Shown: piece after piece, positions 11,521-55,549 of the stretch
How the letters are laid out: every line of letters starts with the position of its first letter
Position numbering within the stretch: position 1 is the first letter of the stretch
DNA from: Chiloscyllium plagiosum
Taxonomy: Eukaryota
Assembly (NCBI RefSeq): GCF_004010195.1
Contig: NC_057754.1
Span: 5,038,220 to 5,102,219 of the forward strand
Direction: 5' to 3'
DNA: 64,000 nt
The notes under the pieces: model-generated
Told to the model about the DNA's origin: nothing
Seen by the model: only the letters and a program-made list of their open reading frames with translations
Databases searched by the model: none
Made by a program: the position numbers and the translations under genes

Positions 11521-11533
11521 CTGTGGTAACCAT

Positions 11534-18774: not shown

Positions 18775-19545
18775 GAATCACAGAATCCCTACAGTGTGGA
18801 AGCAAACCACTCAGCCCATCAAGTCTGCAAAGACCCTCTGAAGAGCATCCCACCCAGATCCACCCTATATTTCTCATGCCAATCCACCCTAACCTACACA
18901 TTCCCGGACACTACAGGGTAATTGAGCATGGCGGAGGTGGGTACTGCAGATGCTGGAGATTAGAGTCAAGATTAGAGTGGTGCTGGAAAAGCACAGCAGG
19001 TCAGGCAGCATCCGAGGAGCAGGAAAATTGACGTTTCGGGCAAAAGTCCTTCATCATTCCTGATGAAGGGCTTTTGCAGAAACATCGATTTTCCTACTCC
19101 TCAGTAATCCATCCTAACCCACACATCCCTGGACACTATGGGGCAATTTAGCACAGCCAATCCATCCTAACCTGCACATCCCTGGACACTATGGGACAAT
19201 TTAGTACAGCCAATCCACCCTAACCTACACATCCCTGGACACTATGGGCAATTTAGCACGGCCAATCCACTCTAACCTGCACATCCCTAGGCACTATGAA
19301 GCAATTTAGCATGGCCAATCCACCCTAACCTGCACATCCCTGGACACTATGGGACAATTCAGCATGGCCAATCCACCCTAACCTGCACATCTTTGGACTG
19401 TGGGAGGAAACTGGAGCACCTGGAGGAAACCCTATGCAGACACTGGGAGAATGTGCAAACTCCACACAGTCGCCCGAGGGTAGAAATAGAAACTAGGTCA
19501 CTCGTGCTGTGAGGCAGCAGTGCTAACCACTTAGTCACCATGTGT
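18775..19545 (-). mobile_element. HE1-like SINE with tandemly amplified 52-53-bp internal unit and a nested PLE
   Basis: tRNA head near 19480-19545; GGACACTA-type unit at 18906, 19131, 19184, 19237, 19289, 19342. Confidence 0.85.
18933..19103. mobile_element. Fold-back Penelope-derived mini-element (family 1)
   Basis: Inverted repeat centred on TTCATCA-TTCC-TGATGAA; hammerhead-like core on each strand. Confidence 0.8.
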
Positions 19546-19794
19546 GCTAATTACTATTACTTTTAAAGAAATTACTATTCATTCATGGTGAATGTATTAA
19601 AGATCCAATCACTGACTGGATGATACCCTCAATTGTCAATCATTAGCAATCTTGGGAGCATCCAAAGGAAGGGATATATTTATCATATCAGTAGGAGTTA
19701 GAGATGCACTTAGGTCTGGAGGTGAAAAGGCAGTGTTTTATTCCTGCATTACTCCCCCTTTTCCACTCATTACTCCTCCTTTCCAGTACATTTC

Positions 19795-20505
19795 AGTCAT
19801 AGAGTCATAGAGATGTACAGCATGGAAACAGACCCTTCGGTCCAACCCGTCCATGCCGACCAGATACCCCAACCCAATCTAGTTCCACCTGCCAGCACCC
19901 GGCCCATATCCCTCCAAATCCTTCCTATTCATATACCCATCCAAATGCCTCTTAAATGTTGCAATTGTACCAGCCTCCACCACNNNNNNNNNNNNNNNNN
20001 NNNNNNNNNNNNNNNNNNNNNNNNNNNNNNNNNNNNNNNNNNNNNNNNNNNNNNNNNNNNNNNNNNNNNNNNNNNNNNNNNNNNNNNNNNNNNNNNNNNN
20101 NNNNNNNNNNNNNNNNNNNNNNNNNNNNNNNNNNNNNNNNNNNNNNNNNNNNNNNNNNNNNNNNNNNNNNNNNNNNNNNNNNNNNNNNNNNNNNNNNNNN
20201 NNNNNNNNNNNNNNNNNNNNNNNNNNNNNNNNNNNNNNNNNNNNNNNNNNNNNNNNNNNNNNNNNNNNNNNNNNACTCTGACCAATAAAGGAAAGCATAC
20301 CAAACGCCTTCTTCACTATCCTATCTACCTGCAACTCCACTTTCAAGGAGCTATGAACCTGCACTCCAAGGTCTCTTTGTTCAGCAACACTCCCTAGGTC
20401 ATTACCATTAAGTGTATAAGTCCTGCTAAGATTTGCTTTCCCAAAATGCAGCACCTTGCATTTATCACATTTATCTGAATTAAACTCCATCTGCCACTTC
20501 TCAGT
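19795..20505 (-). mobile_element. Young CR1/HER1-like LINE spanning the assembly gap
   Basis: Both flanks of the gap match the 17239-18204 family. Confidence 0.9.
19984..20274. other. Assembly gap (291 N)
   Basis: Run of N. Confidence 1.
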
Positions 20506-20685
20506 CTATTTCTGCCTTTGAGTTCTAAGGGTCATTCAGCAGGTTTGCTAGTTTACATCTGACCTACATTCACATAAAAGCAACTGACATTCACACGAAA
20601 TTGTCCCATAATGTCCAGGGATGTATAGGTTAGGATAGATGAGAGATGCTTCTTTCTGACTGAAAATGCATATTTGTGGTGCAGA

Positions 20686-20827
20686 ACTCTGTATCTAACT
20701 CTGTGCTGTCCCTGTCCTGGGAGTGTTTGAGGGGGACATTGTAGAGAGAGCGTTACTCTGTATCTAACCTCATGCTGTCCCCTATCCTGAGAGTGTTTGA
20801 GGAGGCAGTGTTGAGAGAACTTTACTC
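20686..20827. repeat. Two diverged copies of a 69-bp satellite-like unit (ACTCTGTATCTAAC...GAGTGTTTGA...)
   Basis: ACTC unit starts at 20686, 20755 and 20824. Confidence 0.75.
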
Positions 20828-21104
20828 AGTACCTTACCTCAGAATGCCTGCTGCTGACTTTAGGTGTCAAGATGTAAACTGTTCCTTTTTCAGACACTTG
20901 ATTTATTTCACCTTGAAGAGAGAACAAATAATGAAAGAAAAAGTGGTTTACACAGCGTGTTAATCAATGAGGGTGGATTATGTAGAGATTCAGACTATAA
21001 TCTTGTCAACATTTTTTTGTACAGGCAACAATGAAAGCTAAGTTGGAAAAAAAATCAATGTTTGATATCTGATTAGACATTACAACAACAGTAATGAAGT
21101 GTTT

Positions 21105-22007
21105 AGAACAAACAGTCTTACTGCAAATTCAACCCAAACTCTGGGTCAGATATGTGGATGACACCTTTGTAATCATTAAAAACACAGAAATAGAGAACAC
21201 AGACCAGATCATCAACGCCACACTCACAGGAATCCGATTCACTAGAGAGGAAGAAAAGGACAACCAACTCCCATTCCTAGACGTGATGGTACAGAGAACA
21301 CCGAACGGAGAATTCACCACAAAGGTATACAGGAAAGCCACACACACAGACCAAGTCCTGAACTACGAAAGCAACCACCCCAACACACACAAAAGAAGTT
21401 GCATCAAGACACTGTTCAAAAGGGCCACAACACACTGCAGCACACCAGAACTGCAAAAAGAGGAAGAAGAACACCTATACAATGTATTCACCAAAAACAG
21501 ATGCCCGTGCAATTTCATCAACAGATGCCTAAGGGAAAGACAACAGAACGAGGACATGCCACAACCCAAAGGACTAGCCACATTACCATACATCAAGAGC
21601 ATTTCCGAACTGACAGCCAGACTACTGCGACCACTAAGGACTCATAACGGCACACAAACCAACAGCCATTCTCAGACAACAACTCACCAGAACGAAGGAC
21701 CCGATACCCAGAGAACAGCCAGGGATTTCCTAGAGGCATGGCACTCATCCACAGATTCAATCAATAAGCACATCGACCTGGACCCAATATACCGACCACT
21801 GCAACGGATAGCTGGAACTGACAACCGGAAGCGGCAGATTCAAACCACTACAAATGCCGGAGGAAAGATCACAGAAGCACTTCACAGGAGGCTCCCAAGC
21901 ACTGAGGATGTCACCTAGACAGGGGACGAAACATCTGCAACACAAATTCCCAGCTCGGCGAACAGAACCACAACGAGCACCCGAGCTACAAATCTTCTCC
22001 CAAACTT
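21105..22007 (+). mobile_element. Penelope-like element (family 2), RT core and thumb; GIY-YIG domain deleted
   Basis: LWVRYVDDTF, QLPFLDV, VYRKATHTDQVL, LPYIK, FLEAWHS; candidate TSD TGAAGTGTTT at 21095 and 22008. Confidence 0.9.
21899..21938 (+). ncRNA. Minimal hammerhead motif of PLE family 2 (stem III palindrome mutated ACGU>ACAU)
   Basis: GCA-CUGAGGA-U-GUCACCU AGAC AGGGGAC-GAAAC-AUC-UGC. Confidence 0.65.
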
Positions 22008-22449
22008 TGAAGTGTTTCAAAAAACAAACAAGGGGAAGTTATTTATCTTAAAACCTCCAGGTTGTTTCGGAGTCTTTTCACAACAATATTGCTTCAATTA
22101 ATTTTGACCTCTGCACAAAATATTCTGAGTGATGATGCACTTCAAGAAGTTACAAAACTGGACAGCAGTCAGAAACCTTATAGAAAGTGATCCCAGGCCA
22201 TTGGGCTTGGGATCCCCTAATTCAAGATTCTTCCACAAAAGGTAATATCTTCTCCACATCCACCTGGTCAAACCTCCTCAGGAACTCTGACTCTTAAACT
22301 CTGCAAGATACAGGTCTTGCCTGTAGAGCCTTTCCTAATAAGTTAATCCTTCATTCCAGGTATTATTGTGGTAAACCTTGTCTGAACTGCTTAACTGCTC
22401 TGAACTCACTCAAGCCCTGGCAATTTAGCTTAACATCAATTGTTAGTAT

Positions 22450-22975
22450 TTTTTATTTGTGGGATGTGGGCGTCACTGGCTGGGCCAGCATTTACTGCCC
22501 GTCCCTAGTGGTCCTTGAGAAAGTGGTGCTGAGCTGTCTCCTTGAACTGCTGCAGTCCACCTGCTGTGGGTTGACCCACAATGGCCTTAGGGAGAGAATT
22601 CCAGGATTTTGACCCAGCAACGGTGAGGGAACGGTGATACGTTTCCAAGTCAGGACGGTGAGTGGCCTGGGGGGGGGGGGGGGAGATCTTGAAGGTGACG
22701 GTCTTCCTGCATATCTGTTGCCCTTTATTCTTCAGATGTGCGCAGTATAGGTAAGGCCAGCGTTAATTACCCATCCCTGGTGGTGTACCACCTTCTTAAA
22801 CTGCCCTCTGCCCAATGCTACTGTTAGGGATGGAGTTTAAGATTTTGGATCAGGAAGACAGGTACATGTTCAAGTGAAGATTATTGGGTGAATTTGGAGG
22901 TGATAGCGTTCTCAAGTACCTGCTACACTTTTATTTATAAGCAGTGGAGTCTGTGGGTTTGGGAGGTGTTTCTAA
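22450..22975 (-). mobile_element. Two tandem 3' ends of a CR1-type LINE (second clade)
   Basis: Same family as 41380-41760 and 53075-53440. Confidence 0.7.
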
Positions 22976-24669
22976 ATTGAAAATGAAGCCTAACTTTAAT
23001 CAGAGAGCAGCTCCACAAGATGAAGGAGGTAAAGTTAGTAACACCTGGGACGTTGTTCTGAGATACTCCTGCAGTGGCGGTTTGCGAGCCGAGATGATGA
23101 GTCGCCAACGAGATGAAGGCTCACAATTTATTATTTGGAAATTTGGGTTCCAATATGGACAAAACCTGCACAGCTTTAAGTTTGATTTGCCTTTTTGTGT
23201 TGTGTGTGTGTCAAGAAGAGGAGACATAGAATCCAAAAATGCACTTAAATCTATGAATGGTAAAGTGTTGTCTAGAGAGTTGTATAAATGCACTTAGACA
23301 GGCTTCCTAAAAAAAACCCTTGAGGTGAATAGTTCAGTGATTTAGAAAACAAATAATAGAAGAGAGAAAAAAATTTGAGCTGTTGCCTAGTAACAAGGTG
23401 TCCTTTGCGTTATGGACTTGACCGGACCCCGTCAAAAATATTTAAGAAGGTAGAACACATCCTAATTTTTTCTGATTTTAAAGGTAAATGTGAAGTGCCT
23501 GTTCCAGATGCAATGTGGCTACTCGACATTAAACAAAACACGATTTATGTAAATACTGTAGTTAAAATACAACCAAAAAAAAGTGGAATTTAGAATAACT
23601 TAAAAGAATTTAAATAGATAGAGAATATCATATACAATAACTATTATTAATGGACTAATCCAATATTCCCTAAACACACCCCTTGGCAAAAAGGAAAATT
23701 CAGACTCAGATTCTCACATGCAGTTCTCCAATCCATGAGGAAAAAATCATCAAGAAAAGATTCAGAGATAGTAGCAGCCAGGAGACATTCACTGAAACTT
23801 CCAACTCTGTTGAGACCCCAATATCTTCTGATGTTACTGAAAAAACTGAAAGCCAGAAATCTGGATTTGAGAGAGCTGGCCACACCCATTCAGGCTGTTA
23901 AACAACACCAAAGGCCTCCCAAGCCTACAAGAGGTCATCAGTAGCTAGTTCAGTGCCTCCGCCTTACAACCTCTAAAGTGTACTTTATCAGTTTGAGCAG
24001 GAGTCATCCTGGGTAGTTTAAAACTCAGGAAGAGGATAGCTTTAGAAAGAAAAGGCTGGGCAAGTGGGATTTAAGGAGCCCATATTAAAACGATAAGTGA
24101 GCTGCGTTGGCAGTTTGCTTCAGGGTCTCAGGAACAAACATGAACTAAAGAAGGCAGCGCTGAGTAAATGAAGATGTTTGCCACGAAAGAAGCCAAGTAC
24201 TACAACAGGTCTCCCATTTAATGTCCAGCAGGTAGCTCTAGTATTGCATCTAGTAGAAGACTGGCTGCCTAGATTGACAAGAGACTTTGCATTAGCTTCC
24301 CACAGCCTGACAGAGAATGATGAACATTGCGCCATCTCATCCAGGCAGCCACATGCAGCATATCCTTGGGGATCCCAATGCGAATGATGAAGCGACATTA
24401 ATTTCACGAACTTGACATCCATCAAAAGTTTCACTTGTCAAGGTAGATGCAAGATTACCTGCATTTCAGAGGGAACAACTGTTTAATATTGTCTGAGAAA
24501 TAGGGTGCTGTCTAGTTGGAGAGTGCAGTGTGGTTGTTTCAAGGATTGCCAAGGGGAATGCATCAGGGAACAATGTCCCCCCCAAGGTTTTGTTCAGCTA
24601 TTCGGGGATCCTCTCCAGCAGCTGATGTTCCCTGCAAGGCTGCCAGTCCTTGCAGCGAGAGGTGACATG

Positions 24670-25230
24670 CCCTTCCTGCTGCAGTTATACAGGACCTTAG
24701 TGAGGTCACACCTTGAGTACTGTGTGCAGTTTTGGTCTCCTCGTCTGAGGAAGGACATTCTTGCTATTGAGAGAGCAGGCGAAGGTTCACCAGACTGATT
24801 CCTGGGACAGCATGACTGACATGAAAGAAGACTGGATCAACTGGGCTTGTATTCACTGGAATTTCGAAGAATGAGGGTTGATCTCATAGAAACATATCCT
24901 GATGGAACTGGACAGGCTAGACGCAGAACTAGGAGTCACAGTCAGATAATAAAGGGTAAGCCGTTCAGGACTGAGATAAGGAGGAATTTCTTCACTCAGA
25001 GAGCTGTGAACCTGTGGAACTCTCTCCCACAGGAAGCTGTTGGGGCCGGTTCTTTCGATATATTCAAGAGGGAGCTTGACATGGCCCTTGTGGATAAAGA
25101 GATCACCGGGTGCGGAGAGAAAGTGGGAGTGGGATACTGAAATTGCACGATCAGCCGCGATCATCGCGGATGGTGGTGCAGACCCGAAGGGCTGAATGGA
25201 CTACACCTGCACCTGTTTTCTATGTTTTAG
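24670..25230 (+). mobile_element. CR1-like LINE 3' fragment
   Basis: LYRTLVRSHLEYCVQFWSP and RRNFFTQRAVNLWNSLP. Confidence 0.85.
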
Positions 25231-25464
25231 AGCCTTTGCCAGCCCTCTCCCCTCATATCAATGAAGGGAGTCAAACTGCAGCACTCTGATAGTGTGTGAT
25301 AAATCCACTCTACCAGTGAGCTACCTCGAGAAGATGATCCAGGTTACTCACTATGGCTAGGCCAATCAGATCTCCTAAGTAAATGCACAACTGTTTAGTT
25401 TAGCTGATAGACAGCTGAACCCAGTCTAACCAGAGAGTTCTGAGACCAAACTTAGCATGTCACT

Positions 25465-25665
25465 CATATGGAATAAACTGCCAAAGAAAGTGGTGGATGC
25501 AGGCACAGTTACAACGTTTAAAAGACATTTGGATAAGGACATGAATAGGAAATGTTTGGAGGAATATGGGCCAAGTGCAGACAGGTGGGACTAGTTTAAT
25601 TTGGGATTATGTTGGCATAGACTGGTTAGATCAAAGGGTCTGTTTCCATGCTGTATGACTGTATA
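25465..25665 (+). mobile_element. CR1/HER1-like 3' tail
   Basis: TGGAATAAACTGCCA...GGGTCTGTTTCCATGCTGTATGAC. Confidence 0.8.
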
Positions 25666-26559
25666 AACCAAGATCTCCTCAGTAAATGCCATATCCTGGG
25701 TGTGTTACAAAAATATTATGCCCTTGCAATGTCCTGTTAGTTATCACTGCACTGTGGCAGACAGGGATACTACCTTTGGCTTCAGAAGTGTCCTGGCAAA
25801 GGAACATTTCTATTCCCACTCCTATTTCACCTGAAAAGGCCCAGGTATGAACATGTGTGTGTTGAGAGCATCAAAGGCACCATGAAGACAGGACAAGACA
25901 CAAAAGACCTGTCATTATGTTCAGAAATTTCAGTGTTCTTGAGCTCATTCTCCTCATTTAGATGTTTTCATTTCTTTTGACCTGTCAGTGTTGTGCAATG
26001 TACATCCTGATGATTAGAATTCCGGTTCACCCCTCTGAGCTTCAGTTTTCTTATATTGACGCACTGCACCTTGCAGTGACTGCTACTCTATTTGATATGT
26101 GTTCTGCAGTGTGCAGAGTCGGATACTGTTACACCGCCGGGTGCAGGCTCCTGCATAATTCACACTTTTTTTTTAAATGGTGTCTCCCATTCAAATTTTT
26201 GTTTTGTTTTGCTTTGACAGCATCACTGGTTCTATATCAACCAGAGGCATCCCCAGTCATATCACTGCAACCCCCCCTAAATTCCATATCTCCCCAGCCC
26301 CTTCTGATTCCACACCTCAGTTCCCCTACTCCCTAACTGCAGATTTTTACTCTCTGGTTTTGATGCCTACAAGATGCATTCACCTGGATATCAAGTGAGG
26401 ATGGATGTGATGACCTCCATTGGTGAGCAACCTACTTACACTCAGTGAGGCACAAAAAGGCCACTTGGTGTCTTTGGAATCACAGATGAACATGAGTGAG
26501 AACAGGAAAGAATCAGAGACTGCGCAGCAAGATAGAAGGGTAGCTCTCTTCCAGTTTAA

Positions 26560-26900
26560 CACACACCTCTCTCTGGCAAGTGGCCCTGAGTTGAAAGGTT
26601 GTGGTTTCATCTTCCAATCCAGAGAACGCAACATAATCTGGACTGACATTCCGGCAGAGTAGTGAGTGAGGGCAAAACTGGATACTGTCTTTTAGATGAG
26701 ACATTCAACTGAGGCACTATCGTCTTCTCAGGCTATCCTACATCACTACCGAGAAGATGCCAGGGAGTGTCCCAGTTGATATTTATCCTTCCGTCAACAT
26801 CACTTTGAACAGATTCATTATTTCCCTATTGTATAGAGAATGCTGCTGAGCACAAACTGGCTGCGGCATTGCCCACCTTAATGGCTTTTTACTTAATGGA
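26560..26900 (+). mobile_element. Ancient DeuSINE (SacSINE1/AmnSINE1-like) remnant
   Basis: GTCTTTTAGATGAGACATTCAACTGAGGC...ATATTTATCCTTC...AACATCACT resembles the Deu core as recalled. Confidence 0.55.
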
Positions 26901-27114
26901 ATGGTTGCATTCCCCTCCCCCGCACCCCAGTTCCACGTCACACCCCTCCCTCCAATCCTCCTACAGTAAATGACAGAACCCTTAGCAGCATCTGTAAATC
27001 TACAGTTTCCTGAACGTAGCAACACAAGTGGATAAGACAGTCATGGAAACAGACCTTTTGACCAGGCATCCCAACCTGACCCAGTCCCACTTGCCAGCAT
27101 TTGGCTTATATCCC

Positions 27115-27292
27115 CCTACTGGACTCTCAGCTACCTGCCCCCAGCTTCATCCCCCTCTCATTTATTTTCTCCACCCCCCTCAGCTCACAAGCCTCATTTC
27201 TGATGAAAGGCTCTTGCCCAAAACGTTGATTCTCCTGCTCCTGGGATGCTGCCTGACCTGCTGTGCTTTTCCAGCACCACACTCTCAATTCG
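27115..27292 (+). mobile_element. PLE family 1 3' fragment inserted in a CR1 tail (27040-27355, minus strand)
   Basis: TSD ATATCCC at 27108 and 27293; mutated hammerhead, CTGATGA at 27200. Confidence 0.8.
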
Positions 27293-27379
27293 ATATCCCT
27301 CCAGTTCCTTCCGACTCACATATTCATCCAGATGCCTTTTAAATGTTGTACTTGTATCTGCCTTCTGTGCTATATGACT

Positions 27380-27985: not shown

Positions 27986-29088
27986 AATCAGAACAGTGTT
28001 TAACGTGTAAACTCAATTATAACACTCCTCCGCTGGTACATTGTTTTAAACTACTTAAATGGTTATCTAAAATGGAAAAGTTGACTAATTTCCTCCCACG
28101 ATTGAACTCAATTATAATAATTATACATTTTCACCCTACTAAACTGTCAGCCTAAATTAAGTGTCTTAAACAGAAACCGTGAGCATATTAAAACATGTAC
28201 TACACAGAACAGCCACTCAGAATACACACAGTACATGTACCATGGAGGGTCTAGGGATGTTATTGACCCAGAGTAGGACTCAACTCCTCAGATCAAGTCA
28301 AGGTCCTGGAATGCAGAAAATCTATTAATTTTATCAATATGATTAATTGATTGGCAGAGACAAGTTGGACTGAAAGGTGCTATATGACAGTATACATTTG
28401 GACAGGTTTAGAGGGATATGGGTCAGACACAGGCAAATGAGACTAGTTTCATTTGGGAAATGTGGTCAGTATGGATGAGTTGGATTGAAGGGTCTATTTC
28501 TGTGCTGAATGACTCTATAAACATTCTTGTGGAAAGTGAACCTGACAAAGCAGTATTGCTAACAGGCAAATTCAGACAGTTTTTTATCAGAACTCTGAAC
28601 TTGATGAGACAAGTGCTGTTTGTATAGAAATGGCAATGGGCAGATAACCAATAATGCTCTTGTGTTTAATGAGATACTTTACCCAGACAAATATATCAAA
28701 TATATCCTGCATATTGTCAAACAAAACTATTTCCAAAATCTCTCAGCAGAATACTATCCACAACCAAAATCCACTGAAACAGTAAGACAGCTCAAGTTAT
28801 AAAAAGTAGTTCAATATCTATTGAACTAAGGAGACTAAACTAATATACTAAAGAGAAAAAGAACACCAATAACTGCGGATTTGGAAATCAAAAACACAGC
28901 TTGCTGGAAAAGTTCAGCGGAACTGGGAGCAGGTATGGAGAGAAAGCAGAATTAACATTTTGGGTTCAGAACTGATTGTAGCAAGGGAAAAATTGATACG
29001 TGTGCTGAAGGTGGGAGAGGGGAGTAAAGGAACAGTAGAGATGGAACCCAGAGATAGACAGAGAGAGACAGTTGAGTAGACAAAGGAA

Positions 29089-29208
29089 GAAGGGCTTATG
29101 CCCGAAACGTCGATTCTCCTGTTCCTTGGATGCTGCCTGACCTGCTGCGCTTTTCCAGCAACACATTTTCAGCTCTGATCTCCAGCATCTGCAGTCCTCA
29201 CTTTCTCC
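29089..29208 (+). mobile_element. 120-bp PLE family 1 terminus with a perfect 12-bp TSD
   Basis: TAGACAAAGGAA at 29077-29088 and 29209-29220. Confidence 0.9.
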
Positions 29209-30574: not shown

Positions 30575-30862
30575 CGAACCAGAGGACACAGCTTAAAAAT
30601 ACGGGGTAGACCATTTAGGACAGAGATGAGGAGAAACTTCTTCACCCAGAGAGTGGTGGCTGTGTGGAATGCTCTGCCCCAGAGGGCAGTGGAGGCCCAG
30701 TCTCTGGATTCATTTAAGAAAGAGTTGGATAGTGGAATGAAGGATTATGGAGATAAGGCAGGAACAGGATACTGATTAAGGATGATCAGCCATGATCATA
30801 TTGAATGGTGGTGCAAGCTCGAAGGGCAGAATGGCCTACTCCTGCACCTATTGTCTATTGTT
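30575..30862 (+). mobile_element. Young CR1 3' end inserted in the PLE RT
   Basis: AGAAACTTCTTCACCCAGAGAGTGGTG; CTATTGTCTATTG tail. Confidence 0.85.
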
Positions 30863-35944: not shown

Positions 35945-36262
35945 CATAAAATCACCAATGTGGAAGCAGGCCATTTGGCCCATCAAGTCCACATTGACTC
36001 TCTGAACAGGATTCTGCCCAGGCCCAACCCACCTACCCCATCCCTGTAGCCCTACATTTCCCATGGCTAATCCATCCAGCCTGCACATCCCAGGACACTA
36101 TGGTTAATTTAGTACGGTCAATCCACCCTAACCTACACGTTTTTTGTCTGTGGGAGGAAACCCATACAGACATGGGGAGAATGGGCAAACTCCACACAGT
36201 CACCTGAGGGTGGAATCGAACCCCTGGCATTGTGAGGCAGCAGTGCTAGCCACTGTGCCAAC
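35945..36262 (-). mobile_element. HE1-like SINE
   Basis: Core and head match the family. Confidence 0.8.
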
Positions 36263-36566
36263 AGCGTAGATGGATACAATGACACCGTCCCCAACCCTAA
36301 ACTTGCTTTTAATATTAAACATTAAACTTTGTGAATGAGACAATACTTTGACCTTCCTCTCTGACAAACCTTAACTGGAGGGTTAGAAGAGCTTCGAGAA
36401 AGAAGAGCTTGCATTTTGATTGATACAAAATTGAGAACTCGGATTGGGCAATAAATGCTGGCCAAGCCAGCAGTGCCTACATCCAGTGAACGAGTTGAAA
36501 GCATAAAGATCACCATCACCATAAAGAGCCCAGTAGCATTCGTGACAGAGCAGCAGTGTACATTTG

Positions 36567-36872
36567 TGGGCAGCATGGTGACTCAGTGGTTATCACTGCT
36601 GCCCCACAGCACTAGGGTCCCAGGTTCGATTCCAGCCTCGGACTGTCTGTGTGGAGTTTGAATGTTCTCCCCGTGTCTGCATGGGTTAACCCCCAGGTGC
36701 TCCGGTTTGCTCCCACAGTCCAAAGATGCAGGTCAGGTGAATTGGCCACGCTAAATTGCCCTTAGTGTTAGGTGCATTAGTCAGAGGGAAATGGGTCACT
36801 CTTCAGAGGGTTGGTGTGGACTTGTTGGGCCAAAGGGCCTGTTTCCACACTGTAGAGAATCTAATCTAATCA
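36567..36872 (+). mobile_element. HE1-like SINE
   Basis: B box GGTTCGATTCC, TCTAATCTAATC tail. Confidence 0.85.
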
Positions 36873-43490: not shown

Positions 43491-43945
43491 ATGGCAGATC
43501 ACTGTGCCAATGTGTCACAATGCAGTGACTTGAGTTTGACTGACCTTGGCTTGTCATGGAATCAGAGTTATGAGTATGAACAATACATGTCATTGCCAGA
43601 TATAAGAGGGCAGGAGGCTGCTGATAATACTTTCTACCAGGCCAGGATTGTGATAGGTGTGGCCTTTGTCTGCATAATGCTGGTCTGTGGCGTTGGCAAT
43701 TTCTTCTTCATTGTGACCCTGGCCAGATACAAGAATCTGAGGAACATCACCAATCTCCTGATAGTCAACCTGGCCATCTCTGATTTCATTGTGGCCATTG
43801 TGTGCTGTCCCTTCGAAATGGATTACTACGTGGTCAGAGGGCTGTCCTGGAGCTTTGGTCATGTTCTATGTTCCTCTGTGAACTACCTCAGAATGGTGTC
43901 CCTCTATGTCTCCACCAACGCGCTGCTGGTCATTGCCGTCGACAG
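43491..43945 (+). CDS. PROKR: Prokineticin receptor (class A GPCR), coding exon 1: N-terminus and TM1-TM3
   Basis: Kozak [56 protein letters not shown] are PROKR hallmarks; phase-2 donor AG|GTGTGT inside the R of DRY. Paralogue identity not resolved. Confidence 0.96.
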
Positions 43946-43979
43946 GTGTGTTACATTTGGAGTTCTTCTGCAAGTGCAC

Positions 43980-44292
43980 AGAATCATAGTATCCCTACAG
44001 TGTGGAAACAGGCCATTTGGCCCAACAAGTCCACATCGACCCTCCGATGAGTAATCCACCCAGACCCATCCCCCTCCCCTATTACTCTACATTTCCCCTG
44101 ACTAATTCACTTAACCTACACTTGCCTGAACACTATGTGCAATTTACCATGGCCAATCCACCTAACCTGCACATCTTTGGATCGTGAGAGGAAACCGGAG
44201 CCCCACGGAGGAAATCCATGTAAAAACGGATAGAATGTGCAAGTTCCAGACAGACAGTCCCTGGCACTGTAAGGCAGCAGTGCTAAGTCACT
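43980..44292 (-). mobile_element. HE1-like SINE in the PROKR intron, about 35 nt from the donor
   Basis: Family tail, core and head. Confidence 0.85.
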
Positions 44293-44459
44293 ACAAGTTG
44301 CCTTCAGCCATCAACCTGAACTCTGTTTCCTAGCCAGCAATTCCATCTCCTCTTTGGACATTAGTCTGGGTGACACCAAGCCAGACAGTAGGCAACCCTG
44401 CATCTTAGTTGGCCCTGAGTAGAGCTTCCAAACACAATCTCTGCTCCAAGAGAATATAC

Positions 44460-44680
44460 AAGGCAAAGTTGCCATAGTCCTACTGGACCATAGGTCTTCC
44501 ATTTCATTAGAGGTAGACAACTGATGGTGAATTAACCTGATGTCACCATGTCTCAGGTGAGGGGAGGGGTCGAGAAGGAGAATCCTGCATGGTGACCTCA
44601 GCCAGTACAGAAATTGAACCCACACTGTTAGCATCAACCTATCGCAAACTGGCTATCCAGCCAATTGAACTAACTGAGTC
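44460..44680 (-). mobile_element. tRNA-derived SINE, third family
   Basis: Minus-strand head AGTTAGTTCAATTGG...GGGTTCAATTTC. Confidence 0.55.
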
Positions 44681-44684
44681 CCTA

Positions 44685-45265
44685 TACACATACATTGATG
44701 GTATCTATGCCTCTGGACTGTTAATCCAGAACCCTAGGTTAGCATTCTGGGGATGTGGGTTCGAAACCCACAATGACAGAAGGTGAAAATTGAATTCAAT
44801 AAAATCTGGAATCAAAATCCAATTGAATAATGATGACTTAACCATTCTTGTTTAAAAAAAAAACCTACTTGGTTCACTAATATTCTCAAAGGGTTGGAAA
44901 TCTTCCGTCCTTACCTGGTCTGGCCTATAAGTAACCCCAGCAATGCGGTTGACTCTTAACTGCTGTCTGAAATGGCCAATCAGTCCTAGTTGAATTGAGA
45001 GTGTGGTGCTGGAAAAGCACAGCAGGTCTGGCAGCATTCGAGGAGCAGGAGAATTGATGTTTCGTGCATAAGCCCCACATCATGAATCCTGATGAGTAGC
45101 TTATGCCTGAAACATCGATTCTCCTGCTCCTCGGATGCTGCCTTACCTGCTGCGTTTTTCCAGCGCCACACTCTCGACTCTGATCTCCAGCACGTGCAGC
45201 CCTCACTTTCTTCTGGGCATGGGTAACAAATGGCAGTCTTGCCCTCAATGTTGATATCCCATGAA
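44685..45265 (+). mobile_element. tRNA-derived SINE, second family, hosting a fold-back PLE
   Basis: B box GGGTTCGAAACC near 44757; tail resumes after 45213. Confidence 0.75.
44997..45213. mobile_element. Fold-back PLE mini-element in the PROKR intron
   Basis: Arms of about 90 bp around CATCATGAATCCTGATG. Confidence 0.85.
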
Positions 45266-46788
45266 AGACTATACTGTTTACTTTGACACCTGCAGTATGA
45301 CCCTTCCTCACCCTGACTCAGCTATTTCCTGCTGAAATCACCATCCCATCTCATTCCCTCTCTAGTCTCAACTATTCCAATGCTCTTCCAGGGTTCCCCA
45401 TCTTCCACCCTCCTTAAAACACCCAGATTATCCAAACCTCTGTTAGCCCTTATCCTAAACCACACCAAATCTTCTTCACCCATCATCAATTAACTACACC
45501 GACGTCCATACTAGCAAAGTGACAAATTTTAAGTTGTTGTCCTTGCATTCAAATCCATGGCAATGTTGCTCCGTACTCAGTAAATTCCTCCAGCCTCATA
45601 ATCCTTAGCAAATTCTACATCAAATGTAACATCCTATGGATTCTTGATTTATTTTTGCCTAACTACAGGTGGCCATGCCTTTCAGTCCAGGCCTTAAACC
45701 TCATCCCGAAACCATCTTACCTCTTTTTCTCCTACTTTTAAGAAATTGCTTAAAAACAATTTGACCAATCTCTTCATAAACAAATACAGAAATTGCCACA
45801 AAGGCTCAGCAACAAAACTGTTCTGAGAAAGGATCAGCCAATCCGAAACACTCTTATCTTTTGATCATTTTCCCTCATATCTCCCTCGGTGTCTGATTGC
45901 CTTGAGCATTACCAATAAATTACTAACTACATTAGAAACGAGACAAATGCAAACTACTATTGTTTTAAAATGACACTGCAAAGTCACAACTATTTTCTGA
46001 GAAGTAAGATTTTCAGCAGTCATCAGCAATTCCTGCCCTTACTTCATCTATCCTTTGAGGGTAACTTTATTCTGATTTTGCCCCATTATCTGCAATTTGC
46101 AGCAAAACCAAACAGATATGGCCGCCTCAGCTTCAAACCTCAGTGCCATTGGAGTTAGCTACCTCCATCAGGCTGTGAGGTCAGGAGAGCTGAACAAATT
46201 GCTGGGTTAGGAAAGGGGCAAAACCTAGCTACTTACTCAGTGACCCTGCACACGTGGGTGATCATCAGGTGACGATTAGATCAAATCCACTGTGACAGCC
46301 ACAGGTAAATTAGTGAGTTGACCAGTGCCGTCAAGGCAAACACGTGCAGAGGGCTTGTTTGGACAAGGTCATTGCGGCCCTCGGTGTCCACAGATTTCAT
46401 TCATCATTAAACATTGCCATGGCAGCAAAATTAGAGAAGAATCCGACAGTAAAAGAATTGTGGCATGATGTAAAATTACAGTCATTCCTCTGTATCGGTG
46501 AAACTCTGTCCTTGAGAATCTTCACCAATGATGAAGTTCAGAAGTAGGGAGCTCATTAAAAATAGGCTATCGATTTTTGATGTGACATCTTTTGGCGTAG
46601 ATAGGCGAACTTGTGATTTCACGGATGCGGAGGATTTATTGGATTTTCTTTTCGGTAACAATCAAACTGGGTCTTCACAACCAGACGTTCAATGTCATAA
46701 TGTCTTTTGGACTAACCAAAATCTTCCAGTTACCTCAGACTCTCCTACTTATCCTTTCACCTTTGTTTCTCTCTTGTACCCATTGCAG

Positions 46789-47482
46789 GTATCTGGTCAT
46801 TGTGCACCCACTGAAACCTCGTATGAAGTTTCAGACGGCCTACTGTGTTCTGATTGCCGTATGGTTAGTCTCCCTGTTCATCTCCATCCCCTCAGCATAC
46901 TTTACAACTGAAACAACCTTCGACACTTTCCTGGGAAGCAACGGGAAAATATTCTGTGGGCAGATCTGGCCGGCAGACAAGAAACTCTTCTACAAGTCCT
47001 ATTTCTTGTTCCTCTTCATCCTGGAGTTTGTTGTGCCTGTGCTGACTATGTCCCTGTGCTACATGCAGATCTGCAGGGAGCTGTGGTTCAAAAGCATGCC
47101 AGGTGTGCAAACCTACCAAATTAAGAAGCGGCTTCGAGCACGGAGGAAGACCGTCCTGGTCCTTATGGGTATATTGACCGCCTACATCCTCTGCTGGGCT
47201 CCATATTATGGATACACCATCGTCCGAGATTTCTTTCCAAATGTGCTCCTCAGAGTAAAGCATTCCATCACGGTGTACTACATTGTAGAGTGCATTGCAG
47301 TGAGCAACAGCATGATAAACACGCTGTTCTTCGTTACAGTAAAAAACAACACTTGCAAGTATGTGAAGAAGAGCTTCCTTCAGCGCTGGAGGGCTGCCTA
47401 CATACCTGACAAAAGCACTGCCATGCAAGAGTGCCAAACATCAGTGCTGCCGGTGTCCGACGAACTGCCTCAGCAGCAATAG
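46789..47482 (+). CDS. PROKR: Prokineticin receptor, coding exon 2: ICL2 through TM7 and C-tail
   Basis: Strong pyrimidine tract with TTGCAG acceptor; phase matches exon 1 (455+694=1149 nt, 382 aa); [50 protein letters not shown]. Confidence 0.96.
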
Positions 47483-49107
47483 CCAACATGCATTGCCTGC
47501 ATCTAGGTGATACTATGCCAAGGCAATGTTAAACAAAGTGACTCTACTGGTGTAAACCAGCCTGGCTGATGCTGTGGGTGTTGGTGACTCAGCTGTGAAA
47601 CAAGGCAAAACATTAGTTTCCCGGAGACAATTGCTGTAGAATTATTTGGTGGCCATGTGGGATGGGAAGATGATAGTTAAGGTACACAAGGAGTTGCATC
47701 ATGCATGCAAGGAGCCATGTTGGTTTTCAGGTCACACTTCCAAAGGAGTTTCCAATACATCCTCAGGATTCCTTCCCTCCTCCATCCTACAGGCTAAAAG
47801 TCAACTCAAGCTCAGCAGATATCCCATTGCTAAGGCTTTGCTACTCTGCATTATTAATGGACTTCACCAGTGTTTTTCCCAAGACCAACTGTTGATATCA
47901 GTGGCACAAAACTCCCTGCTGACTCAAAAGTAATTCATGTATTGAACTTCATCAATGTTTTGCCTATTTCAGATAGTGAGACTTGTGAAAAGTTGTGCTG
48001 AGGGCCAATCAGAAAAGCTCCCAAATTGATGGGTGGCTCCATGCTGGAAGTATTGCTGCAATTTTATCTGCAACAGGAGTTTCTGCAAAGACTCCAGCTA
48101 TCTAGTGAACTATATTGCAAATCTGAGAGATTGTCTTATTGCCCTCAGCAGCAAAGGGTCAAAAACAGCAAGGTATGTGTAAGGTGATGGGAACAAGAAT
48201 GTTTTCTGAGATGCAAATTTTGTTGTTGATATGTGCCAAAGCTCCCAGGAATTAGCTATCATTTGCCCGTAAGGAAAGGATTAGCTGATCTGGTACTGGA
48301 TTGATACCTCATGTTGAAAGGCTTCAGCACTTCACTCTTGGGGTGCTGCTCTAGGTACAATTGCATACAAGGCCACATCTAATGGAAACTAGATCTTCCT
48401 AAGCAGGTTTACTGGTCTCAGAATCTGTCCAGGTGAACAGGATGCTTCTTATGAAGACTGTCAAACTGGGCTGTGGTATTCCACAAATGACATTTCATCG
48501 CAGAGTTCCTTCTCTGAAACCAATGTAATGAATAATGCATCTCATACCACCTCCAGCTACATGCGTGCGTGTGTGTATGGGGTATGGGGGCATTGGGCGA
48601 TATGCTATGATGAAAGAGAGACTACAATTCATGAAGTACCACTCCATGACTTTCAGAAATATCTCCAAAATATTTCACATTGGAGACATTATGCTGGACT
48701 CTGAACACAGAGCATGGAAACAGACCCTTTGGTCCAACGTGTCCATGGCAGCCCAATTTGTCAAACTAAACCAGTCCAACTGAGCCAGAACTGAAAAGGG
48801 GAAAAATGGAGAAACCAGAAAACATTGTTTGTAAATGAGAATGAATACTGTCGTTAAGAATTCCTTGTAAATAGCTTACAAAAGCATCACAGATCATTCC
48901 GGTTTCTGTTGTCACCCAAATTCAGATAGCATCCACTTGTTAAACCTTGAATCTCCGAAAGAGAGACAGCAAGGTTCTTACACTCTGGCTCTGTGTAAAG
49001 CAGGCTGATTCTTGTCTAGTCTTGCACTGTGTTATGTCAAAGGTTCTTCATTCAATCATAGATATCCTGTGTAATTGTTCATTGTCTCTGCAACGTCAAC
49101 AGTGTTG

Positions 49108-49148
49108 AATAAAATTCATGGAAGGAAAAGGTTTTGTTTCGTTTTATG
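49108..49148 (+). terminator. Probable PROKR polyadenylation signal (3' UTR about 1.65 kb)
   Basis: First AATAAA I found after the stop (49108-49113), followed by GU/U-rich GTTTTGTTTCGTTTT. Confidence 0.55.
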
Positions 49149-49415
49149 CAAAAGCTGCATTTATTCATAAGAGGCTAAATTTCACAAGAGGTCTTTTTTC
49201 TGTCCCATTATCTCTTTTTTTAAGTCACCTATACCCAAGAAGAGAGGGAGAGACTGGCCTTGCCGCTCAACTGTCCTGCATGAGCAACCTTGCTAGGTTC
49301 CATTATGGGAGTCTCCAGAAACAACTTTCTTACTATGCACTCATACATATGCACCAATAGAGAATGGTATCCATATTTACAGCCAGTGGTATTAATGAGA
49401 AATCACAATGAGGTA

Positions 49416-50048
49416 TGTTTAAGATGTATGTTTTGTCCTTTCTTTTGTGAAGAGAGATTTTAAGTCAGAGGTACTAAGCTTGCGAGTGAAGGCCCATAAA
49501 GTAAACAGCTTGGGAGGCCTTGGGCTTTTAAGTTAGGACAATAAAAGCAGCCTTGGTGGCTGTGGCCACATCTTACAGACCAGAATGTGTAGTTTTTGTT
49601 TAAGCTTTTAGATTCGGCAGTTGCCATGGGGTCTTGAAGAGGTGGAAATTATTTTATGGCCCCTCTTTCAATTACAACCAGAAGCTGGGGGCTGTCTTCC
49701 TAGGCTACTGGAATGAATGAGAGACAAAATATGTTTTCTGAATTTGGCTTTTGCCAAAGGATGGCTTATGGGATGTCACTATATTGGAACAGTTAATTAG
49801 CAATAGTTACTGTAGCTATTATTCTGTTAAGTTTTCCAATGGAGTTAAGTTATTCCAAGTTCTTCTTTCTTTTGTTGTATTTTAACTATAGTGTTTGAAT
49901 AAATTGTGTTTTGCTTAACATCCAGTAGTCTGACCAGTCAAATTACAACTGGAACATAGCACCTCACTTTACCTTTAAAGTAAGAAGATGTTAAGGTCTA
50001 GGCTGCCTTCTTAAAATATTCTGAGAAGGCCTTGTCTGGCCCAATACA
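49416..50048 (+). mobile_element. Probable solo LTR
   Basis: TG...CA ends, about 630 bp, internal AATAAA near 49898; no clear TSD. Confidence 0.45.
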
Positions 50049-50729
50049 GAAAAAGAGGAGAAAATTGACATGAATAAATGCTAAAGAACTTAACGACAAT
50101 GTGAAGCTTCTATTGTCTTAATTTGGGATAAAAGAAGTTGTGAAGGATGATAAGCTCAGTGCAGTGAACACTTGAGAATGACTTAAGGAGAAAATGTACA
50201 AATAGACCAAATCCCACTGAAATGAAAACCCATAAAAATACAAATGTAAGGGAACAACATTTAAATCCATCTGGTCTAACTTGATATACAGCTACACACT
50301 GCTGCTTCTCATACACACTGAATAGCGCCCAGAGTCTGTCTTGGCTGCAGTTCAATCGGTTATGAAAAGATGGTTTCTTTTCCCTTTGAAGCTTTTCATG
50401 GAACAAACAGCACTTGCAACATCTTTTGGGCCTCCCCTGCAGGTTATATGTTCCCTTTCTTTCTTGAGGATCTTGTCATCTGTGTGGTAGTCACCTTCCT
50501 GAGACTAAGTGTACTGGGCTTCACTGGCTTCAAGCTAATCCTGTCTTGTCAATACCGCCACCAATTTAATTAAACCCTATTTATTTTGTAAACATCGACC
50601 AGCAACTGGCTAAAAGAGATAGGAGGAAATAAAGCTGGATGGAGCAAAGAAAATAATGAAAAATATAAAGGATGAATTAAAGGAAATCGTTAAAAGGAAA
50701 ACAATGGAAATAAATGGCTGTATGGTTTC

Positions 50730-51638
50730 ATAGAGATATACAGCACAGGAACAGACCCTTCGATCCAACTAGTCCATGCCGACCAGACATCGTAAATTAA
50801 TCTAGTCCCATTTGCCAGGACTTGGCCCATATCTCTCTAAATTCTTCCTTTGTTCCTAACCCCATCCAGATGCCTTTTAAATGTTGTGATTATACCAGCC
50901 TTCACCACTTCCTCTGGCAGCTCATTCTATCCATGTAATACCCTCTGCATGAAAAGGTTGCCCCTTAGGTCCCTTTTAAACCTTTCCACTCTCACCTAAA
51001 ATCTATGTCATCTAGTTTTGGACTCCCCTACCCTGGGGTAAAATACCTTGGCTATTCATCCACTTCATGCCCCTCATGATTTTATAAACCTCTCTAAGAT
51101 CACCCGTCAGTATCCGACGCTCCAGGGAAAATAGCTGCAGCCTATTCAGCCTCTCCCTCTAGCTCAAATCCTCCAACCCCAGCAGCATCCTTGTATATGT
51201 TTCCTCACCGCTCTCAAGTTTCACAATATCTTTCCTATAACAGGGAGAACGGAATCGAAAATAGTATTCAAAAAGTGGCCCAATCAATGTCCTGTACAGC
51301 TGCGACATTGGATCCCAATTCTTATACTCAATGCACTGTCCAATAAAGGCAAGCATACCAAACATCATCATCTCTACCCTGTCTACCTGTGACTCCATTT
51401 CCAAGGAACTATGAACCTGCACCCCAAGGTTTCTTTGTTTGGTAACACTCCCCAGGTCCTTCCCATTAAGTGTGTAAGCCCTGCCCTGATTTGCCTTTCC
51501 AAAATGCAACATCTCACATTTATCCAAATTAAACTCCATTTGCCATTCCTCGACACATCTGTCCCTTTGTACTCTGAGATAACCTTCTTCACTGCCCACT
51601 AACTACCAATTTTAGTTCCAACTGTAAACTTACTAATT
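50730..51638 (-). mobile_element. CR1/HER1-like LINE 3' part flanked by ~150-bp direct repeats
   Basis: EEWQMEFNLDKCEMLHFGK ORF plus 3' UTR. Confidence 0.9.
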
Positions 51639-51909
51639 CAGACCTATTTATTTTTTAAATATCAACCAGCAACTGGCTAAAAGAGACAAGAGAAAATTAC
51701 ACTGCTCCAAGCAGAGTGGAAAATATAAAGGAGCAATTAAAGGTAATTGTCAAAATGAAAGGAAGGAAATAAATGGCTGCAAGTATGGTTTCGCCTGGTT
51801 ATAACAAATTGTCTAACCTTCCTGACATCCGATCACCATACAGCTGTACTCAATTCTTCCTAAAAACACACCAAATAGTCTCTCAACCCGAATTACATCA
51901 AAGTCTTGA

Positions 51910-52062
51910 TGTGGAGGATCTGGTGCTGGACTGTGGTGGATGAAGTTAAAACTCACACAGCACCAGGTTACAGTTCAATAGGTTTATTTGGAAGAACTAG
52001 CTTTCGGAGCCACCTAATGAAGGAGCAGCGGTCCAAATGCGAGTGCTTCCAAATAAACCTGT
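51910..52062. mobile_element. Fold-back PLE mini-element (family 3)
   Basis: AGGTTTATTTGGAAG / CTTCCAAATAAACCT arms around a decayed core CCTAATGAAGGAGCAGCGGTCC. Confidence 0.7.
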
Positions 52063-53074
52063 CGTGTGGTATTCCTGCCTATTTCCAGTAACCTTTCACC
52101 GTCTTGGTTATCAACAATCTACCTGCCTTAGAAATATTCAAAGCCTCCACTTCAGAAAAAGTGCTTCAAAAATTCATCTTTCCTCTGTGTTAAAATCTCT
52201 TTAATCTTATTTCTAAAACCATCTGTACTTTCCCAATTATTCAGTTTACTGGAACACTGGTGCCAATACGGTACAGTTCTAAATCATCCTAATGATACAG
52301 GCACCACTTTTGCCAGTACTGGTGTCAGTGCCCATAAGATTGGCTCAGTAGAAATGAATTTCAGTTTAAGTTACATATTAATTTTACTAAGCTTAGTTGC
52401 CCTAAATCAATCTGAGTGTGGCTCATGTAATAACCTGAAGAATGCCATCTTTAGGTTCTGCTTTTTAATTTGGTGCCTAGCTCCTCATTATGACTATTCA
52501 GAACTTCTTACTATGTCACTGGTACCTGCATGGACCATGATGACTGGATCCAGTCTTCCCATTGTTAAGTCCTTTTCCAGCTATGAGAATATGCCCAGAA
52601 TCCCAGCATTGGATAGGTAACACAGCCTTTGTTTTTGCTGCAGAGTACAATAGCAATGCCCATCACTACACCCAGACCAATCCCATCTGCTCTGCAGTTG
52701 TGTCACAATACATCTGAAGACTATGATTAAACAAGAAATCTATTTTCTGATATCACATTAAGACTGTTGAGTCAAGTTTCCATATGCTATTCTAGTAGGA
52801 GGCTCCTGTGGTGCAGCAGCAGTGTCCCTACCTCTGGACCAGAAGGCCTAGATTAAAGTCCCACCTGTTCCAGGGGTATATCATAACATGCCTGAATGGG
52901 TAGATGTAAAAATATTTACTTTGCTCCTTTTGCCACCACAATCCTTTCACTATCCCCATTTGAATAGCTTGCTGTACTGAAGTGCAATTAGATCCTCTAT
53001 CCTGCCGCTTTCACTCTCATCAACCAGTGGAAGTACCTCAAATCTATTGGATAATTACAGTTTTTAAAAATGTA

Positions 53075-53440
53075 TTCATTATTTTTGTGGGATGTGAGCA
53101 TCATTGGCTGGCCAGCATTTATTGCCCATCCCTAGTTATCCTAGAGAAGGTGATGGTGGTGATCTGCTTTCTTGAACTGCTGCAGTCCACCTGCTGTGGG
53201 TTGACCCACAATGCCATTAAAGAGGGAATTCCAGGATTTTGACCAAGCGACAGTGAAGGAACAGCTGATATATTTACAAGTCTGGATGGTGAGTGGCCTG
53301 GAGGAGAACTTGAAGGTGGTGGTGTTCCCATGTATCTGCTGCCCTTGTCCTTCTAGGTGGAAGTGGTCATGGATTTGGAAGGTGCTGTCTGAGGATCTTT
53401 GGTGAATTTCTGCGGTGCATCTTGGAGATACTACACACTG
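53075..53440 (-). mobile_element. CR1-type LINE (second clade) 3' end
   Basis: Matches the 22450 copy. Confidence 0.8.
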
Positions 53441-54930
53441 CTATTCTCCATTTACTGCTGTATACCGCTATTTAATATTCTTTGGTTGACAGAATTCCAA
53501 CTGGCTCTCCCTAACTGCATGGTTTTTAATTTGCTACCGCAAATGTGCACAATGACAATTCATCCCAAATCAATCAACTTGCAAAGACATGCCAAACTTG
53601 ACTGCTGCTCAAAGATTTTGGGAAATTGGGCATACATGACTTTGGACCAAGTTCTGGAAAATAGGCTGAGAATAGTTAGGTGGTAGTTATTGACCAGCAC
53701 AGACTCAATCTGCCTCTTCTTGTGCTGTAGACCTTTCCCAAGACATGGGTGCCACTGGTTAAGCCAACATTTACTGCCCATCCCTAATTTCTTCTTGGGG
53801 TGGGAGAAGTGGGGTAGATACCCCATAGCGCGACTGATACATTTCATCCTCACAAGATGTTTGAAACACTCATTTTCTTCAGTGTTTTACGCAACACTGA
53901 TTGCACAGGGAGAAGTGGAAGGAACAGAGTGCAAGGGGAAGCAGAGAGTTTCATCAGATTGATGTTGCTCAGTTTTACATTGAACGGTAATCTCAAAGAT
54001 CAAAGCAGAATAGAAGAAGTCTTTTCAGCAATTTAATGAGATAAGAAAATGATAATCCATTTGGCACGATCTCTAACAGCTGAAGGCTCTCTGAATAATG
54101 TCAGTTGAAGAGCTGGAATATTTTACAGTACAAAGACTTTCATCCTTACTGTAGATGAAAAGATATTTTAATTACAATGCAAATTGAAGCTGATGCTGAA
54201 CATTGACGCACTATAAGATATTAGGAGGGGAATAAGGAATGCTTCCATTTCCCCAATTTCCTCTCCATTGCATCCAAAATCTTGCACCATCACCAGGTAA
54301 GTTAGCAGGCACACTGTGGCTGAGTGCAGTTGTCCAGACAAAGAGCAGATCCTCATGGCACTCCACGTGTCTGATGACTTAGTGCCATTCTTCTGTCTTT
54401 CCCCCATATTCTTGCACATTATTTCTATTCAAATAATTATCTAATGCCTCCCTGAATGCCTCAATTGAACCTTGCCTCAAAACACTTCTGAGCAATTCGT
54501 TCCAGACCTGAACAACTCAGGTGAAACAGTCTTTTTCTCTTGCTACTTTTGCAAATTACTTTAAATTCATGCCCTCTTGATCCTGATCTTTTTTACAAGC
54601 AGGAACAGTTTCAGTCTACACCATCCAGGCATGATTTTGAGAACTTTAACAGATCTCCTCTTAGCCTTCTCTCCAAGGAGAAAAACCCCAAACTCTCCAA
54701 CAGACCTTCACAACTGAAGTTTCTGATTTCTGGAACCACTACTGTAAATCTCTTCTGCACTTTCTCCATTGCGTTCACAACTGGACTGCACCCAATACTC
54801 CAACTGAGGTCTAATAAATGTCTTTTCTGCTACTCAATGCCCTTTACACTGTATGTTTGGTTAATTGCTCTACCCAACTGTCCTGCCACATTCTACGACC
54901 TATGCACATCTTCACCCAACTCTGTTTGCT

Positions 54931-55150
54931 GAGGTGGAGGTGGGTGTTGCAGATGCTGGAGATTACAGTCAAGATTAGAGTGGTGCTGGAAAAGCAGAGC
55001 CGGTCAGGCAGCATCCGAGGAGCAGGAGAATAGATGTTTCGGGCTAAAGTATTCATCAGGAATGATGAAGGGCTTTAGCCCGAAACATCGATTTTCCTGC
55101 TTCTCGGATGCTGCCTGACCGGCTCTGCTTTTCCAGCACCACTCTAATCT
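54931..55150. mobile_element. Fold-back PLE mini-element (family 1)
   Basis: Arms around TTCATCAGGAATGATGAA. Confidence 0.85.
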
Positions 55151-55350
55151 CTCTGCTCTTGCACTTCCTAAATGATTGCATCCCTATTTTATGATATCTG
55201 TCCATGCTCTTTCTACCTATATACATCACCTTACACTTCTGTACGTTGAATTCCACCTGCCATCTATCTGCCCACTCCACCAACTTGTCCACATGCTTTT
55301 AAAATTCTACACCGCTCTCCTTACTAGTTACAATATGTCTATATTATATC

Positions 55351-55549
55351 GAAGAGTGTGGTGCTGGAAAAGCACAGCCGGTCAGGCAGCATCTGAGGAG
55401 CAGAAGAGTCGACGTTTCAGGCATAAGCCCTTTATCAGGAATGCCCGAAATGTCAACTCTCCTCCTCCTTGGATGCTGCCTGACCGGCTCTGCTTTTCCA
55501 CACTCTTCAACTCTGATCTCCAGCATCTGCAGTCCTCACCTTCTCCTCA
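55351..55549. mobile_element. Fold-back PLE mini-element (family 1) with TSD
   Basis: Arms around ATCAGGAATGCCCGAAA; TSD ATATTATATC at 55341 and 55553. Confidence 0.85.

Follow-up and report, generated by a model that had tools for sequence, protein, structure and literature searches.

Short hairpins in the Chiloscyllium plagiosum genome are head-to-head pairs of Penelope-like element 3′ ends that meet beside a hammerhead motif

Insertions of Penelope-like elements (PLEs) often carry an inverted, 5′-truncated copy at their 5′ end and a one-sided tail of 30–40 bp (Craig et al., 2021, PMC8557442). Naiads show the same inverted copy and tail without canonical hammerheads, and the pseudo-long terminal repeat (pLTR) of Penelope contains the transcription start (PMC8557442). 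The inverted pLTRs of rotifer Penelopes, which have short junctional overlaps or palindromes and target-site duplications (TSDs) of 8–10 bp, have been interpreted as self-priming (Arkhipova et al., 2013, PMC3846280). The PAc protein of the Poseidon element from Anolis carolinensis nicks and extends both target strands and initiates internally at two adjacent sites, which defines the tail, and insertion is indifferent to catalytic mutations of the hammerhead (Frangieh et al., 2024, PMC11167929). In Schistosoma, dual hammerhead motifs lie on opposite strands 100–700 bp apart (2014, PMC4209133). Here we describe five short inverted repeats of PLE origin (hairpins A–E) in a window of Chiloscyllium plagiosum DNA, that is, the whole stretch of 64,000 nucleotides that was analyzed (assembly GCF_004010195.1, contig NC_057754.1, positions 5,038,220 to 5,102,219 of the forward strand). 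An earlier note, made from the letters of this DNA, had put them forward as a candidate for an undescribed system in which the fold of the ribozyme dictates the inversion.

All five inverted repeats were found where the earlier note had placed them (Table 1) and belong, as it had claimed, to two families, with hairpins A, B, D and E in family 1 and C in family 2. Each hairpin consists of two copies of one PLE 3′ terminal segment, with the 5′ ends meeting and the 3′ ends pointing outward, and exactly one arm bears an extra tail of ~35–40 nt at every locus (5/5). The hammerhead motif in the repeats is the minimal type I one known from metazoan PLEs. The PLE origin proposed for the hairpins is supported by the head-to-head anatomy, the one-sided tail and the hammerhead motif in the terminal repeat. 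When the + strand was folded as RNA, none of 200 shuffles reached the native stability of any hairpin. Our interpretation is that the hairpins are probably decayed head-to-head pairs of 90–130-base PLE 3′ ends, formed at insertion by two-strand priming, run-off and microhomology joining.

This anatomy matches the insertion units of endonuclease-containing (EN+) PLEs in several respects. The head-to-head inverted copy is present at all five loci and in the contig joints described below, and the tail at one end and the short overlap or palindrome at the junction have published counterparts (PMC3846280, PMC8557442). The hammerhead lies in the terminal repeat, intact at 11816 (in the non-inverted copy 11513..11907) and decayed in all arms. 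TSDs flank some copies, with lengths of 10–13 (E), 12 and 13 bp, and are absent from others. The differences are that both copies are cut down to 50–135 nt, no open reading frame (ORF) lies between them, and one arm starts at a sharp position beside the hammerhead. Given that an inverted 5′-truncated copy with a one-sided tail is already published PLE anatomy, the proposal of an undescribed system is not supported: the hairpins are of a known kind, and the sharp 5′ anchor is a modest refinement.

The motif itself resembles the minimal hammerheads of PLEs in having CUGAUGA, one unpaired base, helix II and GAAA, and its palindromic 15.2–16.2 segment (ACGU in family 1, AGCU in family 2) has a parallel in the same hammerheads (PMC4209133). 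Unlike the dual motifs of Schistosoma, the two motifs of a hairpin abut or overlap, and none of the ten arms retains an intact minimal hammerhead when the core, helix II and the 15.2–16.2 pair are examined; hammerhead-derived sequence does lie on both strands, as the earlier note held, but not in intact form. As with the two start sites of PAc, the ends with and without a tail lie about 90–125 nt downstream of the hammerhead. Unlike the PAc element, no ORF starts at the family-1 hammerhead in the window copies; the available part of the PAc study is silent on head-to-head products. For hammerhead-hinged inversion or for this 5′ anchor, nothing direct was found in the literature searched, including passages of PMC8969392, PMC6431247, PMC6155905 and bioRxiv 10.64898/2026.07.22.740005, with older subscription papers and supplements outside the search.

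The position of the 5′ ends is the most regular feature of these insertions. Counting the C of CUGAUGA as position 0, all ten hairpin arms start at -6 to +16, consistent with the proposal that the inversion point lies within about 25 nt of the core. In all five hairpins the arm that reaches further has its start at -3 to -6, and that of its partner is variable; the probability of this coincidence by chance ranges from 0.034 to 0.0001 depending on the null model, with A and D counted once. A single 23-nt window takes 12 of 14 arm starts and the outermost 5′ end of seven of the nine family-1 and family-2 insertions (with geometric truncation as the null and insertions as the unit, p about 0.002). 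Of the four solo copies, two likewise have their start in the core. For the arm starts of hairpin C, family 2 has no upstream sequence in the window to serve as a reference. None of the 12 short ends fell within 3 nt of the cleavage site (+28), and a hinge defined by cleavage was rejected.

The same boundary emerged from assembled contigs of three runs from related organisms, which were aligned to the family-1 copy at 11513..11907 at 80% likeness (100,163, 83,135 and 66,826 contig records per run). Between -23 and +19, summed contig depth, which is not a copy number, rose 78-, 73- and 58-fold in the three runs, and its ratio between -23 and -118 was 1.06, 2.87 and 0.97. The depth profile at the hammerhead is a step, not a slope. 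Among 15 of 297 joints listed, nine rows were head-to-head (84, 76 and 53 contigs in the three runs), four were head-to-tail with the same anchor point (44, 43 and 25 contigs) and two were skips, in a list that is no histogram, frequent junctions being probably lost in contigs. In the head-to-head joints listed, whose geometry is fixed by shorter-side lengths that match the distance to the 3′ end, an arm reaching about -2 meets a partner that starts at +31 to +45. All the head-to-head and head-to-tail joints listed are anchored at about -2 or just upstream; differences private to the reference copy (at -6, -5 and -3) cause alignment ends to pile up at -2. Within these limits, the depth step, the anchored joints and the 23-nt window indicate that breakpoints are not uniform along the 3′ untranslated region, uniformity being an outcome that the earlier note had named as refuting its proposal. 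The breakpoints do cluster, but what they mark is a 5′ boundary general to family-1 copies rather than one specific to inversions, because tandem joints and two of the four solo copies have it too. Contigs of all three organisms also skip or replace ~82 nt upstream of the hammerhead (11723/11731 to 11814/11816; 10, 8 and 4 contigs), perhaps representing a subfamily with a shorter 3′ untranslated region.

At the junctions the two arms overlap by 3 nt in A, 1 nt in B, 3 nt in D and 3 nt in E. Hairpins A and D have an identical 20-nt junction on opposite strands (+19060 versus -55059). Two of the junctions quoted as differing between copies, the first and the third, are in fact reverse complements of each other (A and D), and the five loci therefore have four distinct junctions rather than five. 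This diversity, together with nine partner positions among the contig joints listed, supports the proposal of repeated de novo formation.

The hairpins also look like neutrally decaying inserts, because their arms have diverged (38/44 identical positions in A, 77/91 in B, 27/34 in C, 81/87 in D and 58/67 in E) and the mismatches carry no strand bias. Specifically, 15 G-U versus 9 A-C mismatches on the + strand gave no signal of strand-biased selection for an RNA hairpin (p = 0.31). The TSD of 10 bp reported for one insertion is exact at hairpin E and, if one mismatch is allowed, 13 bp long; a random pair would show such a duplication with a chance of about 0.002. No TSD was detectable at hairpins A–D, and six of the nine insertions (five hairpins and four non-inverted copies) have none.

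Two-strand priming and microhomology joining would account for these features as follows. Both nicked target strands would prime reverse transcription of short cDNAs, one per start site. One cDNA would run off at a fixed boundary, the 5′ edge of hammerhead helix I, which is most likely where the template RNA begins in the pLTR. The run-off end could then anneal to the other cDNA at a complement of 1–3 nt, and repair would complete the palindrome, giving products that would be dead on arrival. Thus, the joint likely sits at the hammerhead because the template boundary adjoins it, with ribozyme cleavage uninvolved.

Several points weigh against this interpretation. The template start is inferred, and a search left the link between family 1 and a PLE ORF (reverse transcriptase, RT, plus GIY-YIG) unconfirmed. 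The private differences of the reference copy mean that the contig anchor is placed only to within a few bases, and subfamilies with other upstream sequence would mimic a step in summed contig depth. A TSD flanks just one of the five hairpins, and one junction is common to A and D. Furthermore, A and C each have a short arm that stops before the normal 3′ end (at about +46 and +47, respectively), and independent priming of the two strands would account for this only if a deletion followed. Lastly, the listed head-to-head partners cluster at +31 to +36, the first part of the hammerhead fold that the reverse transcriptase would reach. This clustering suits an alternative in which the folded hammerhead, perhaps as an RNA dimer joined through the palindromic ACGU helix III, stalls the enzyme and sets a template switch. 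We consider this unlikely, even though in both families the fixed end falls at the 5′ edge of helix I, other partners start within the core or stem II (+1, +14 and +16), the +31 to +36 partners among the contig joints listed mark the 3′ base of the fold, and dimeric action has been proposed for minimal hammerheads (PMC4209133). The position of the fixed end is past the entire fold, not at its 3′ base. None of the 15 of 297 joints listed is nearer than 33 nt, so the edge at +31 may be a tool cut-off. Moreover, the identical anchor recurs in head-to-tail joints, Naiads invert without canonical hammerheads (PMC8557442), and mutants that are catalytic rather than fold-disrupting leave insertion in vitro unchanged (PMC11167929). 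On these grounds the claim that the ribozyme fold dictates the inversion is unsupported. A related and rather improbable idea is that the PLE hammerhead is a structural device: RNAs would dimerize through helix III, both would be reverse-transcribed at one double-strand break, and the fold edges (about -5 and +31) would set the cDNA stops. If true, head-to-head PLE insertions would be explained, the ribozyme would have a function, and shark introns would be seeded with tens of thousands of 50–90-bp double-stranded RNA (dsRNA) stems.

Self-priming, in which a cDNA that has reached the 5′ boundary uses a 3-bp mini-hairpin to fold back and serves as its own template, would fit the junction of A and D (a 3-bp stem with a 4-nt loop) and hairpin D, whose tail is on the arm reaching -6. 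Within each of the arm pairs of B, D and E, both arms have one non-majority variant in common that is absent from the other window copies, a pattern also expected from one source element or from arm-to-arm conversion. We hold this route to be quite unlikely: four of the five hairpins (A, B, C and E) carry the tail on the 5′-shorter arm, and a copy cannot gain a tail that its template arm lacks unless the tail of the first arm was later cut off. A hairpin-shaped non-autonomous master (like a short interspersed element, SINE, or a miniature inverted-repeat transposable element, MITE) copied as a unit would explain why A and D share a junction and subfamily marks and why the short arm of A and that of C resemble 5′-truncated copies of a hairpin RNA. 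It is nevertheless very unlikely, given that A and D carry their tails on opposite arms, that there are four junctions at five loci and nine partner positions among the contig joints listed, and that the ends are asymmetric and the TSDs of the family are 10–13, 12 or 13 bp or none, unlike those of MITEs. MITEs proper are also short inverted-repeat inserts, but the hairpins have neither fixed terminal inverted repeats nor a fixed TSD length, and we rejected this class, another outcome that by the earlier note would have refuted its proposal. In L1 twin priming, two primers at a staggered break yield a head-to-head junction with microhomology and a TSD, and each arm derives from a different part of the RNA. 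In the hairpins, the two arms duplicate one segment rather than representing non-overlapping parts of an RNA, and twin priming of the L1 type was rejected. Animal non-LTR (non-long terminal repeat) retrozymes are likewise short, non-coding, pLTR-derived units with hammerheads (bioRxiv 10.64898/2026.07.22.740005). Those are head-to-tail tandem arrays, whereas the five loci are single head-to-head units, asymmetric and variable, without tandem monomers; head-to-tail joints exist in contigs.

Table 1. Hairpins, their arms and flanking duplications, and non-inverted copies in the window (positions of the 64,000-nt stretch; arm starts relative to the C of CUGAUGA).
Feature	Position	Strand	Description
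Hairpin A	18931-19104		+ strand RNA fold -80.7 kcal/mol, z -8.7
Hairpin A, arm with tail	18931..19056	-	Family 1; 5′ start +1
Hairpin A, short arm	19054..19104	+	Family 1; -6 to about +46; without normal 3′ end
Hairpin B	44995-45215		+ strand RNA fold -149 kcal/mol, z -19.7
Hairpin B, arm without tail	44995..45087	-	Family 1; 5′ start -4
Hairpin B, arm with tail	45087..45215	+	Family 1; 5′ start -2
Hairpin C	51910-52062		+ strand RNA fold -57.1 kcal/mol, z -4.7
Hairpin C, arm with tail	51910..52010	-	Family 2; 5′ start +16
Hairpin C, short arm	52011..52062	+	Family 2; start about -3; stops before normal 3′ end; core mutated
Hairpin D	54931-55150		+ strand RNA fold -171.8 kcal/mol, z -22.3
Hairpin D, arm with tail	54930..55065	-	Family 1; 5′ start -6
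Hairpin D, arm without tail	55063..55150	+	Family 1; 5′ start +1
Hairpin E	55351-55549		+ strand RNA fold -109 kcal/mol, z -11.2
Hairpin E, arm without tail	55351..55443	-	Family 1; 5′ start -5
Hairpin E, arm with tail	55441..55549	+	Family 1; 5′ start +14
Hairpin E, TSD, left copy	55338..55350	+	10 bp exact (55341-55350); 13 bp with one mismatch
Hairpin E, TSD, right copy	55550..55562	+	10 bp exact (55553-55562)
Non-inverted copy, long	11513..11907	+	Family 1; 13-bp TSD with one mismatch; ~300 nt upstream of core
Non-inverted copy	27105..27290	+	Family 1; extends to about -95; no TSD detected
Non-inverted copy, with tail	29089..29208	+	Family 1; 5′ start +5; exact 12-bp TSD
Non-inverted copy	18279..18352	+	Family 2; 5′ start about +9; no TSD detected

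The four non-inverted copies of families 1 and 2 served for comparison, and the counts given above leave aside weaker, older relatives at 9848-9911 and 28901-28964 and an element of a third family. The solo copy at 29089-29208 adjoins or sits inside an older PLE-like end on the opposite strand (the weak profile match at 28901-28964). In the long family-1 copy, the ~25 nt that separate the left TSD from the first homologous position (11513-11537) are unlike the family-1 upstream sequence in the loose ends of contigs, and are filler or a small inverted piece. A stretch of ~20 residues at 11537-11590 resembles the end of a PLE ORF, a resemblance unconfirmed by search; together with the architecture, it is the basis for linking family 1 to an RT–endonuclease ORF. 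The family-1 ORF end was in none of ten candidates, and the one hit of a further search, a 6,462-residue repeat protein without a significant single stretch, was rejected. From +50 to +80 of the motif at 11816, family 1 has a splice-acceptor-like segment (branch-point-like CTGAC, a pyrimidine run and CAG) that could be relevant for intronic copies such as hairpin B.

Other searches returned no counterpart. Rfam gave five matches, all under gathering scores and of the generic hairpin type that arises by chance; a metagenome scan with the family-1 pattern gave none. RNA run X22, which is not a test of expression, gave no matching read in 8,328,510. The hairpins may be similar to the crocodilian 'Chompy' elements.

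The third PLE family is represented by a 5′-truncated, non-inverted copy (21073-22012) with its own hammerhead motif at 21902. Its PLE-type ORF fragment (21073-21918) is 83–93% identical to bamboo-shark proteins; Pfam assigned no family to 21073-21915, but the homologues do carry RT domains. Elsewhere in the window, hairpin A sits within the tandem-repeat end of a SINE, and two inverted SINE copies about 300–800 nt apart (35956-36852) are a potential long RNA stem. A tandem repeat at 16525-17095 has long repetitive open frames on both strands, and an assembly gap (a run of N) at 19984-20274 interrupts a fragment of a long interspersed element (LINE).

The intron (43946-46788) of a two-exon seven-transmembrane receptor gene (43491-47482, + strand; Pfam 7tm_1), which we take to be prokineticin-receptor-like, contains hairpin B. 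Because of this intronic position, it is plausible that B would be transcribed with the receptor pre-mRNA and could pair as dsRNA. Hairpins in introns, B among them, might serve as Alu-like dsRNA and as editing substrates.

Considered as a system, the hairpins are ordinary PLE debris. The sharp anchor beside helix I bears on how PLEs form inverted copies and on the purpose of the hammerhead, both described as open in earlier studies (PMC8557442, PMC11167929). With one family drawing 67,000–100,000 contigs per run, this genome is well suited for testing the anchor.

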